Below are positions 39,087-54,757 of a DNA stretch of 56,212 nucleotides, one piece after another. Source of the DNA: Candidatus Opitulatrix roisinitermitis (GTDB taxonomy: Bacteria; Actinomycetota; Actinomycetes; Actinomycetales; Bifidobacteriaceae); assembly GCA_031288355.1 (NCBI GenBank), contig JAITRN010000087.1, positions 1 to 56,212 on the forward strand, given 5' to 3'. Below the pieces are notes generated by a model that was not told where the DNA came from, did no database searches, and saw nothing but the letters and a program-made list of their open reading frames with translations. Positions within the stretch are counted from its first letter, which is position 1. Every line of letters starts with the position of its first letter. The position numbers and the translations under genes were made by a program.

Positions 39087-39530
39087 TTACTTCTCAATAT
39101 TTACCACTAATCTATTTACACCTAACGAAAATATTTGACCCGGTTTTATTTGATTTATGCCATAAACACGTTCGCCATTTATAAATGTCCCATTTGTGGA
39201 ACTTAAATCTTCTAAATAAATTTTTCTACCATCCTGAAAAACTTTTAAATGTTTAGCAGACACAAAATCATCAGATAAAACAATAGTGTTATCATCTGAT
39301 CTGCCAACAGTTATATCTTTATTTTCTAACGGCGCCAAAACACCCACCATAGGTCCTTCAATAACTTGTAAAAAATATTTTCTGTCATTATTTTTTGCCT
39401 GACCGCGAAACTCAACTTTTTTAGATTTAATCATTATTTGATTTTTTAATTTAACAGCAACAACTATTACAAAAATCCACAATAAAATTAAATACAAATA
39501 TTTCAATGCTGCTATAACTATATCTATCAC
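39087..39530 (-). CDS. fhaB: FHA-domain membrane protein FhaB/FipA-like
   Basis: It has an N-terminal TM (YLYLILLWIFVIVVAV) and a C-terminal FHA domain (VGRS.DN.IVL.DDFVS..H........K.YLEDL.STNGTF.NG). The track start is a GTG at 39530; a TTG at codon 9 is an alternative. Confidence 0.8.
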   Translation of the reverse strand: MIDIVIAALKYLYLILLWIFVIVVAVKLKNQIMIKSKKVEFRGQAKNNDRKYFLQVIEGPMVGVLAPLENKDITVGRSDDNTIVLSDDFVSAKHLKVFQDGRKIYLEDLSSTNGTFINGERVYGINQIKPGQIFSLGVNRLVVNIEK

Positions 39531-39531
39531 G

Positions 39532-39604
39532 AGCTACCTGTGAGAATCGAACTCACGACCCTGTCATTACGAGTGACATACTCTGCCAACTGAGCTAAGG
39601 TAGC
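39532..39604 (-). tRNA. tRNA-Thr (anticodon CGU)
   Basis: Reverse complement: GCTACCT TA GCTC AGTTGGCA GAGT A TGTCA CTCGTAA TGACA GGGTC GTGAG TTCGATT CTCAC AGGTAGC T. The cloverleaf is canonical. CCA is not encoded. Confidence 0.9.
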
Positions 39605-53632: not shown

Positions 53633-54160
53633 ATGAATATATCCCAGGCTAAAAAAGAGCTAAGACAAAAAATTTTGCAACAAAATAATCTATATCAAAA
53701 TAAAAAAGATATTACAAATAGCCTAAAATCTTTTCAAAAAAATCTATCTTCTTTTTTAAAAGAAAATTCTAATAAAAAGATTATTGGTTTTCAAGCTTTA
53801 CTGGGAGAACCTAAACTTATTGGAATTAATAACTTTATACCGCAAACTGCCAAAATAGCTAAAAAAGAAGATTTTCTTGGATTCGATATATATTTAATTC
53901 CTTGTTTAGCTGTGGACAAACAATTTAACCGCTTAGGGCGAGGAAGCGGATTTTATGACAAACTAATATCCTATATTAAACAATCTGATATTACGCAAAA
54001 TACTATTGAAAAAAATAATATTAAAAATGATAACAAAAGCTCTGCTAAATTTATAGTATGCTGCTGGACAAAACAAATTTTTGATAAAATCCCTTTTGAA
54101 AAACATGACGAAAAAATTGATGGAATTATTACTGAAAAATCTATTACTTATAAAAGCTAA
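53633..54160 (+). CDS. 5-formyltetrahydrofolate cyclo-ligase
   Basis: Starts K.ELR..IL. The core DIYLIPCLAVDKQFNRLGRGSGFYDKLI matches the D....P..AFD..G.RLG.G.G.YDR motif. K.D.IITE lies near the C-terminus. Confidence 0.7.
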   Translation: MNISQAKKELRQKILQQNNLYQNKKDITNSLKSFQKNLSSFLKENSNKKIIGFQALLGEPKLIGINNFIPQTAKIAKKEDFLGFDIYLIPCLAVDKQFNRLGRGSGFYDKLISYIKQSDITQNTIEKNNIKNDNKSSAKFIVCCWTKQIFDKIPFEKHDEKIDGIITEKSITYKS

Positions 54161-54223
54161 TTAATACTTTTAAAATTAAATCCTTTTTATAACTAAATTA
54201 TATTATGATAAAATAAAAATATT

Positions 54224-54297
54224 GGCCCCTTAGCCCAATCGGTAGAGGCAACAGACTTAAAATCTGTCCAGTGTCAGTTCGAGTCTGACAGGGGCTA
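54224..54297 (+). tRNA. tRNA with anticodon UAA and a Leu-type D-arm but a class I (5-nt) variable loop; nominally tRNA-Leu(UAA)
   Basis: Fold: GGCCCCT TA GCCC AATCGGTAG AGGC A ACAGA CTTAAAA TCTGT CCAGT GTCAG TTCGAGT CTGAC AGGGGCT A. All stems pair: G1.U72, C13.A22 as in E. coli tRNA-Leu, and G53:C61. The T-loop is TTCGAGT and the discriminator is A. CCA is not encoded. Total length 74 nt. Confidence 0.7.
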
Positions 54298-54298
54298 C

Positions 54299-54757
54299 AT
54301 GTCTAGCCAAAACAAGAATTTTAATAAAAAACAAAATTGGATATACCATATCTTACAATTTATAAAATTTGGTATAGTTGGAGCAATTTGCTACGTGGTA
54401 GATGTCAGCCTTTACAATGTGCTAGTTTTTGCACCATCCATAAACTTTTTATCTCATGCACCTGTGACAGCTAAAGCTGTCAGCACCGCAATCAGTACAC
54501 TGCTTTCCTGGATTCTAAATAGAAATTGGGCTTTTCGCGAACATAAAACAAACTCTAAACGCAAAGAATTAATAGCCTATATTTTAATAAATGCCTTAGG
54601 AATGTTAATTGCTATGACTTGTTTAGGCTTTTCACGCTATATTTTACACCTAAAAGGCGCTATATCTGACAATATTTCTGGGAACGTTATAGGCACAGGT
54701 TTAGGCACATTTTGGCGATATTTTGCCTATAAATTCATTCTTTATAAGAAAAAATAA
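54299..54757 (+). CDS. GtrA-family membrane protein
   Basis: 152 aa with four predicted TM segments. Contains FIKFGIVGAICYVVDVSLYNVL and NR.WAFRE, typical of GtrA-like proteins. Its ATG begins 2 nt after the tRNA discriminator base. Confidence 0.75.
   Translation: MSSQNKNFNKKQNWIYHILQFIKFGIVGAICYVVDVSLYNVLVFAPSINFLSHAPVTAKAVSTAISTLLSWILNRNWAFREHKTNSKRKELIAYILINALGMLIAMTCLGFSRYILHLKGAISDNISGNVIGTGLGTFWRYFAYKFILYKKK

Follow-up and report, generated by a model that had tools for sequence, protein, structure and literature searches.

A short-variable-loop tRNA-Leu(UAA) gene in an AT-rich member of the Bifidobacteriaceae

Is a tRNA-Leu(UAA) gene with a variable region of only 5 nt an anomaly in a bacterial genome, or is it a working reader of UUA codons? 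The question is raised by a locus near the end of an entire contig of 56,212 bp (about 32% GC), which was analyzed at full length and is called the window here. [quoted passage not shown] In our reading, to which we give a probability of roughly 0.88, an AT-rich member of the Bifidobacteriaceae has here a functional, vertically inherited type I tRNA-Leu(UAA) gene in its chromosome, one that belongs to an actinobacterial lineage of UUR-decoding type I tRNA-Leu.

Anatomy of the gene

The segment at 54224 to 54297 is a genuine tRNA gene. ARAGORN called a tRNA-Leu(taa) at 54224-54298, and Rfam RF00005 matched 54224-54297 over the full model (positions 1 to 71) with 59.8 bits (E=1.8e-10). ARAGORN and covariance-model runs had been proposed as checks in the first-pass annotation. 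Both agreed with it, and its coordinates, cloverleaf anatomy, and 5-nt variable loop matched the sequence, ARAGORN, and Rfam exactly. The class I architecture and the Leu-type D-arm of this tRNA-Leu(UAA) were likewise upheld. The principal features are as follows.

54224..54297, + strand: type I (short variable loop) tRNA-Leu(UAA) gene, 74 nt, without encoded CCA (ARAGORN, Rfam, and orthologs)
54233..54249, + strand: Leu-type D-arm GCCC-AAUCGGUAG-AGGC, with three pairs plus C13.A22, and with A14, A15, G18, and G19
54258..54260, + strand: anticodon TAA (UAA), from the sequence and ARAGORN (anticodon position 35)
54268..54272, + strand: variable loop CCAGU, 5 nt, ending in U48, from the sequence and the Rfam alignment

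As read from the sequence, the acceptor stem is GGCCCCU/AGGGGCU with a G1.U72 wobble, U8 and A9 are present, and U8 is available for the U8:A14 identity pair. The anticodon stem (ACAGA/UCUGU) carries the loop CUUAAAA, the T-arm (GUCAG-UUCGAGU-CUGAC) is canonical, and the discriminator is A73. The UAA anticodon would read UUA and probably UUG as well.

Short-arm tRNA-Leu in Actinomycetota and phages

The first-pass annotation regarded the 5-nt variable region as anomalous because it took every bacterial tRNA-Leu to be class II. This premise is contradicted by Streptomyces coelicolor (PMC6614811), by Mycobacterium tuberculosis (Mtb) and M. smegmatis (PMC11541572), and by the genomes of at least 120 species; the short variable region is a published actinobacterial feature. 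The premise probably traces to a rule that is still stated in a 2023 review, according to which tRNA-Leu is long-armed everywhere but in animal mitochondria (PMC9976931).

S. coelicolor has a type I tRNA-Leu(CAA) whose variable loop is 5 nt long, and the single LeuRS of the organism, ScoLeuRS, leucylates it (Fan, Huang, Ji & Wang 2019, NAR 47:6369; PMC6614811) with a catalytic efficiency about half that on the type II bldA tRNA. To recognize the type I tRNA, ScoLeuRS depends on its own leucine-specific domain and, on the side of the tRNA, on U8:A14, the elbow, and a variable loop no shorter than 5 nt. E. coli LeuRS cannot charge this tRNA, and ScoLeuRS does not charge human mitochondrial tRNA-Leu(UUR) (PMC6614811). 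The minimum variable loop for good leucylation was 5 nt including nt 48 (PMC6614811), and the window loop, CCAGU with U48, lies at this published minimum. In mycobacteria, M. tuberculosis H37Rv and M. smegmatis possess five tRNA-Leu genes each, one per anticodon (PMC11541572 supplement, derived from tRNAscan-SE). In both species, the genes for Leu-TAA and Leu-CAA are of type I and 74 bp long, while the CAG, GAG, and TAG isoacceptors are long-armed. Leu-TAA is the sole UAA isoacceptor in the table for either species; the Mtb gene has a tRNAscan-SE score (Sc) of 63.13, and full-length 77-nt reads of it appear in the tRNA-seq table (PMC11541572). A mycobacterial tRNA cluster also encodes a short-variable-loop tRNA-Leu(TAG) (PMC6582537).

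To survey this design, we wrote a structure-aware pattern that requires a Leu-type D-arm, an anticodon loop with UAA, and a T-loop at class I distance. Bacterial genomes (one per species) and viral contigs were scanned with it, for the UAA anticodon only, and ARAGORN was run on every pattern locus. At least 120 species genomes matched. Among the 120 cellular loci listed, 113 held a lone tRNA in the 8-kb chunk, with tRNA-Leu(taa) calls of 74 to 77 nt, and about 105 belonged to Actinomycetota, as judged by record title. The genera among the matches listed include Mycobacterium, Nocardia, Gordonia, Rhodococcus, Corynebacterium, Arthrobacter, and Rothia as well as Microbacterium, Amycolatopsis, Arcanobacterium, Trueperella, Actinomyces, and Varibaculum. 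Bifidobacterium proper was not among the 120 matches listed, which is uninformative either way. One metagenome scan, based on lineage-marker positions, returned Varibaculum-type copies and marine or phage-like copies, with neither the window itself nor any closer relative among them.

Viral contigs yielded at least 120 pattern loci, mostly in multi-tRNA arrays. Independently of the pattern, a sensitive BLAST search of the 74 nt against phage genomes retrieved 258 records. The full-length matches were 77 to 80% identical, were annotated as tRNA-Leu of 74 to 75 nt, and occurred in Streptomyces, Mycobacterium, Lactobacillus, and Pseudomonas phages. Once aligned, the phage set shared a D-arm of the form RYCC-AAUNGGNAG-AGRY with C13.A22, variable loops resembling CCAGU, and A73, with UAA, CAA, or UAG as the anticodon. 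Judged by these sequence features, the phage matches and the window gene form a coherent short-arm tRNA-Leu family. A tblastn search of all window open reading frames (ORFs) against 240 pattern-derived loci found no shared neighbor genes; thus, synteny cannot support orthology beyond the family level, and vertical descent beyond the family would rest on 74 nt of similarity.

Several individual loci deserve mention. Lactobacillus phage Bacchae carries three short-arm tRNA-Leu genes (L007:1161-1234, 1499-1573, and 1785-1858), and another is found in Pseudomonas phage 16Q (L008:1499-1573). Such genes, with UAA, CAA, and UAG anticodons, are common in the tRNA arrays of nonactinobacterial phages and marine viral contigs (many of the loci in L129-L248 and L250-L320). 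E. coli LeuRS is unable to charge the S. coelicolor type I tRNA (PMC6614811), yet nonactinobacterial phages carry short-arm tRNA-Leu. A Planctomycetota metagenome-assembled genome (MAG; JBCCHQ010000007.1, L012:3550-3912) encodes three consecutive short-arm tRNA-Leu (cag, taa, and gag), followed by a 100-nt stretch that ARAGORN calls tRNA-Tyr, and Rokubacteria and Methylomirabilia MAGs (L027 and L080) place a short tRNA-Leu(taa) inside Gly-Cys-Leu clusters. The short-arm design therefore also occurs outside Actinomycetota.

The best cellular copy is a stand-alone gene of Varibaculum timonense (Actinomycetaceae), with 88% identity to the window tRNA; a viral contig copy (L198) is nearly its equal at 86.5%. 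In a comparison that took in 11 of the 45 Mtb tRNAs, identity was 82% to Leu-TAA and 74% to Leu-CAA (both type I), 74% to Lys-UUU, 64% to Phe-GAA, and 59 to 61% to the type II tRNA-Leu. By this measure, the window tRNA appears closer to type I tRNA-Leu than to the other isoacceptor classes compared. Mtb tRNA-Lys(UUU) and Mtb type I tRNA-Leu(UAA) have almost identical acceptor and anticodon-stem sequences, a likeness that may hint at the origin of the type I tRNA-Leu body.

Set against the known systems, the window gene resembles S. coelicolor tRNA-Leu(CAA) in being actinobacterial and chromosomal, in reading a UUR codon, and in its 5-nt variable loop, U8:A14, G18G19, and A73. It differs in anticodon (UAA instead of CAA) and in variable loop, which is ACAGC with C48 in S. 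coelicolor. Moreover, the UAA isoacceptor of S. coelicolor (bldA) is type II, whereas that of the window is type I, and charging has been characterized for the CAA tRNA. Mtb tRNA-Leu(TAA) (trna12, 1177396-1177469, 74 bp) is nearer, with the same anticodon, length, and D-arm, and it also stands alone. However, the high GC content of Mtb makes UUA rare and the tRNA low in abundance, while in the window genome UUA makes up 4.9% of codons. The window stems are more AT-rich than those of Mtb Leu-TAA (A27-U43, A52-U62, and U7-A66), and G2-C71 replaces C2-G71. Phage and cluster copies (e.g., Streptomyces phage Francob, Mycobacterium phage Douge, and Lactobacillus phage Bacchae) share the cloverleaf, D-arm, CCAGU-type loop, and A73 at 77 to 86% identity, but they lie in dense multi-tRNA arrays on mobile DNA with UAA, CAA, or UAG anticodons, whereas the window gene is a lone chromosomal gene in conserved housekeeping synteny. 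Animal mitochondrial tRNA-Leu(UUR) has the class I architecture and the UAA anticodon in common with the window tRNA; in contrast, it has a relaxed structure and a dedicated mitochondrial LeuRS, while the window tRNA has canonical D- and T-loops (G18G19 and UUCGAGU) and lies on a bacterial contig.

The homologs also bear on the fold. ViennaRNA gave an alternative structure as the minimum free energy (MFE) fold (-24.9 kcal/mol, versus -23.7 kcal/mol for the cloverleaf). A non-cloverleaf MFE fold is common among unmodified tRNA sequences. In an alignment of 94 distinct cellular homologs, including the window gene, 99.6% of the cloverleaf cells were paired, and changes on both sides were seen at 19 of the 20 pairs. 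None of 500 shuffles reached the observed covariation values, and slid controls likewise fell far below them. The MFE fold was set aside and the cloverleaf preferred because covariation across the 94 homologs is the stronger evidence and outweighs the thermodynamic difference. The D-arm and anticodon loop were preset by the search pattern, so their invariance in the 94-sequence alignment is no evidence. The D-arm arrangement is, however, present in sequences that were not selected by the pattern, namely, the BLAST-derived phage tRNAs and Mtb Leu-TAA and Leu-CAA.

Taken together, these data show that many Actinomycetota normally decode UUA with a short-arm tRNA of this design, which is also widespread in phages; thus, such calls are ordinary for the phylum. 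The design was already documented in Actinobacteria (e.g., Streptomyces and Mycobacterium), and the window gene is of an ordinary, little-publicized kind. It is the long-arm rule that makes readers flag such genes as anomalies.

The tRNA-gtrA locus and its conservation

The contig encodes rpoB, rpoC, atpB, sodA, glyA, and folD, among other genes. The best named homologs of its AtpB are labeled "MAG: Bifidobacteriaceae bacterium" (83% identity), followed by Bifidobacterium, Candidatus Ancillula, and Cellulomonadaceae at about 45 to 55%, and the closest GtrA homologs are likewise annotated as Bifidobacteriaceae MAGs. These homologs make the host an actinobacterium, and an unusually AT-rich one. 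Searches for exact copies of the window MTHFS and AtpB proteins found none on record. ARAGORN found three tRNAs on the 56-kb contig, and the one nearest to tRNA-Leu(UAA) ends at 39604, about 14 kb away. The flanks of tRNA-Leu(UAA) are housekeeping genes (folD, tdk, atpB, MTHFS, gtrA, HIT, and sodA). No LeuRS gene was recognized among the window ORFs, seven of which were annotated with Pfam. The features adjoining the tRNA are the following.

54206..54214, + strand: candidate extended -10 element TGaTAAAAT, ending 9 nt upstream of the tRNA 5' end
54299..54757, + strand: gtrA-family gene (Pfam GtrA_DPMS_TM, E=6.9e-22), with the start codon 1 nt past the discriminator
54297-54301: tRNA/gtrA junction, corresponding to L321:9999-10003, L322:7181-7185, and L323:581-585 in related genomes

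Three related MAG contigs (L321, L322, and L323) were reached through gtrA homologs. Their GtrA proteins are 92%, 70%, and 66% identical to that of the window, and their GC contents are 32 to 36%. A short tRNA-Leu(taa) lies directly upstream of gtrA-HIT in all three, with the order tRNA-gtrA-HIT kept. Relative to two of these orthologs, the window tRNA shows one difference, A27-U43 in place of G27.U43, by which the pair is kept. In the third, C11-G24 of those two has changed to U11-A24, a compensatory replacement, and one D-loop base is different. In the four-locus alignment, the tRNA is much better conserved than its flanks or the GtrA protein. An ortholog alignment of this kind had been suggested in the first-pass annotation as a way to look for substitutions in the stems, and it returned only pair-preserving, compensatory, or D-loop changes. 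The locus bears the signature of a functional, expressed gene under purifying selection, not of a decaying one.

The tRNA is absent from the syntenic atpB loci of relatives (L001 to L004). Its linkage is to gtrA and to neither atpB nor MTHFS. In one of these relatives, whose AtpB is 83% identical (L001:8586-9964), MTHFS is followed by an XerC/D-type recombinase gene and dprA-comM rather than by tRNA-gtrA-HIT as at window positions 53633 to 54300. This difference in gene order places a rearrangement breakpoint between MTHFS and the tRNA.

A promoter scan found TTTATA-17-TAAAAT with an upstream TG, which alone is not above chance for AT-rich DNA. However, T.TG.TAAAAT (window 54204-54214) is invariant at all four orthologous loci, whereas the surrounding intergenic sequence diverges, and this motif may act as the promoter of the tRNA. 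The gtrA gene is probably cotranscribed with tRNA-Leu(UAA). In all four related genomes, gtrA starts exactly 1 nt after the discriminator, with GTG in L321 and ATG in the others; the N-terminal tails of GtrA vary in length, and there is no alternative in-frame ATG. Excision of the tRNA 3' end would give an essentially leaderless gtrA mRNA, resembling the tRNA punctuation of mitochondria. Elsewhere on the contig, the ORF that follows tRNA-Thr(cgt) (39531-39604, - strand) at 39087-39530 (- strand) has its first possible start directly after the tRNA. This abutment may be an artefact of longest-ORF listing or may represent a second tRNA-abutting gene start.

The same evidence bears on an origin from phage, whether as a remnant of a prophage or tRNA array or by recent acquisition, instead of ancestral chromosomal descent. 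Short-arm tRNA-Leu is abundant in phage arrays, as the BLAST records and viral pattern loci attest, and the viral copy L198 is nearly as close to the window gene as the best cellular copy is. Nevertheless, the window gene is a lone tRNA amid housekeeping genes, no integrase or phage gene was found nearby in the ORF list or by Pfam, and three relatives, of which the most divergent has 66% GtrA identity, share the tRNA-gtrA-HIT locus. The cellular homolog is also a lone chromosomal gene in 113 of the 120 genomes listed, and the nearest cellular match comes from a neighboring family, the Actinomycetaceae. We consider a phage origin unlikely; a prophage remnant, in particular, was rejected on the basis of genomic context and conservation in relatives.

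A second alternative makes the gene a marginal copy, a redundant or decaying paralog, with UUA decoded by a canonical long-arm tRNA-Leu(UAA) encoded elsewhere in the genome. The window exposes 56 kb of the genome with its three tRNAs, and S. coelicolor does carry the type II tRNA-Leu(UAA) bldA beside its type I CAA gene (PMC6614811). Decay, which the first-pass annotation had suggested, is at odds with stems that are all intact and with three orthologs that have changed only in pair-preserving, compensatory, or D-loop positions while their flanks diverged. The promoter-like element is conserved at the orthologous loci as well, and the type I gene is the only UAA isoacceptor listed for Mtb and M. 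smegmatis (PMC11541572). The Rfam score of 59.8 bits is also near the value of 63.13 that tRNAscan-SE gives the Mtb ortholog, although scores from different models can be compared only loosely. We regard such a paralog as quite improbable.

Leucine decoding in an AT-rich genome

The first-pass annotation had expected UUA to be the main leucine codon, and codon usage bears this out. In 45 long ORFs, TTA accounts for 814 of 1,564 Leu codons (52%, or 49 per 1,000 codons) and TTG for 21%, so that UUA and UUG together make up 73% of Leu codons. When AtpB homologs were compared, the 18 TTA codons aligned with Leu in 55% and with Phe in 6% of cases. Against E. coli RpoB and RpoC, 64 of 110 TTA codons aligned with Leu and 3 with Phe; Leu stood opposite 26 of 41 TTG codons and, as a control, 19 of 32 CTT codons. 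UUR is standard Leu in the host genome, and some Leu-charged reader of UUA is therefore required. By analogy, the window tRNA is most likely that reader, since each anticodon has a single gene in Mtb and in M. smegmatis.

Charging with another amino acid, for instance of a tRNA-Phe derivative with a G34U change that would recode or mistranslate UUR, has in its favor a loop (CUUAAAA) one base from the Phe loop (CUGAAAA) and the Phe-like acceptor and T-arm remarked on in the first-pass annotation, but we hold it to be highly improbable and rejected it on similarity and codon alignment: the window tRNA is 64% identical to Mtb tRNA-Phe versus 82% to type I tRNA-Leu(UAA), its Leu-specific D-arm (C13.A22 and the AAUNGGNAG loop) does not occur in tRNA-Phe, the tRNA-Phe body differs from it in both D-arm (GCUC-AGU.GGUA) and variable loop (G-rich), and Leu stands opposite TTA and TTG as often as opposite CTT, with Phe at 6% or less.

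For the preferred reading, a functional type I tRNA-Leu(UAA), the following course can be proposed. The gene would be transcribed from its own extended -10 promoter and trimmed at the 3' end, after which CCA would be added posttranscriptionally, since none is encoded. By analogy with S. coelicolor tRNA-Leu(CAA), a single LeuRS would charge the tRNA with leucine by way of U8:A14, the elbow of the D- and T-loops (G18, G19, and U54-A58), and a variable loop of 5 nt or more, with no need of a long arm. The charged tRNA would then insert leucine at UUA, the commonest of the Leu codons, and probably at UUG as well.

What sets this gene apart is that the dominant Leu codon of an AT-rich actinobacterium is probably served by a type I tRNA-Leu. 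In high-GC actinobacteria, the tRNA serves a rare codon, while in the AT-rich lineage it would have to serve about 5% of all codons. The lineage is thus a natural test of how a bacterial LeuRS performs on a type I substrate. We tentatively suggest, at somewhat less than even odds, that the type I tRNA-Leu(UAA) is the sole reader of UUA (possibly also of UUG) and hence the principal Leu tRNA of the organism and that its 3' processing site sets the 5' end of a leaderless gtrA mRNA. If this is true, the LeuRS of the lineage would be coadapted to a substrate that is charged less efficiently than type II in Streptomyces, and a short-arm tRNA would act as the principal leucine tRNA in a free bacterial translation system.
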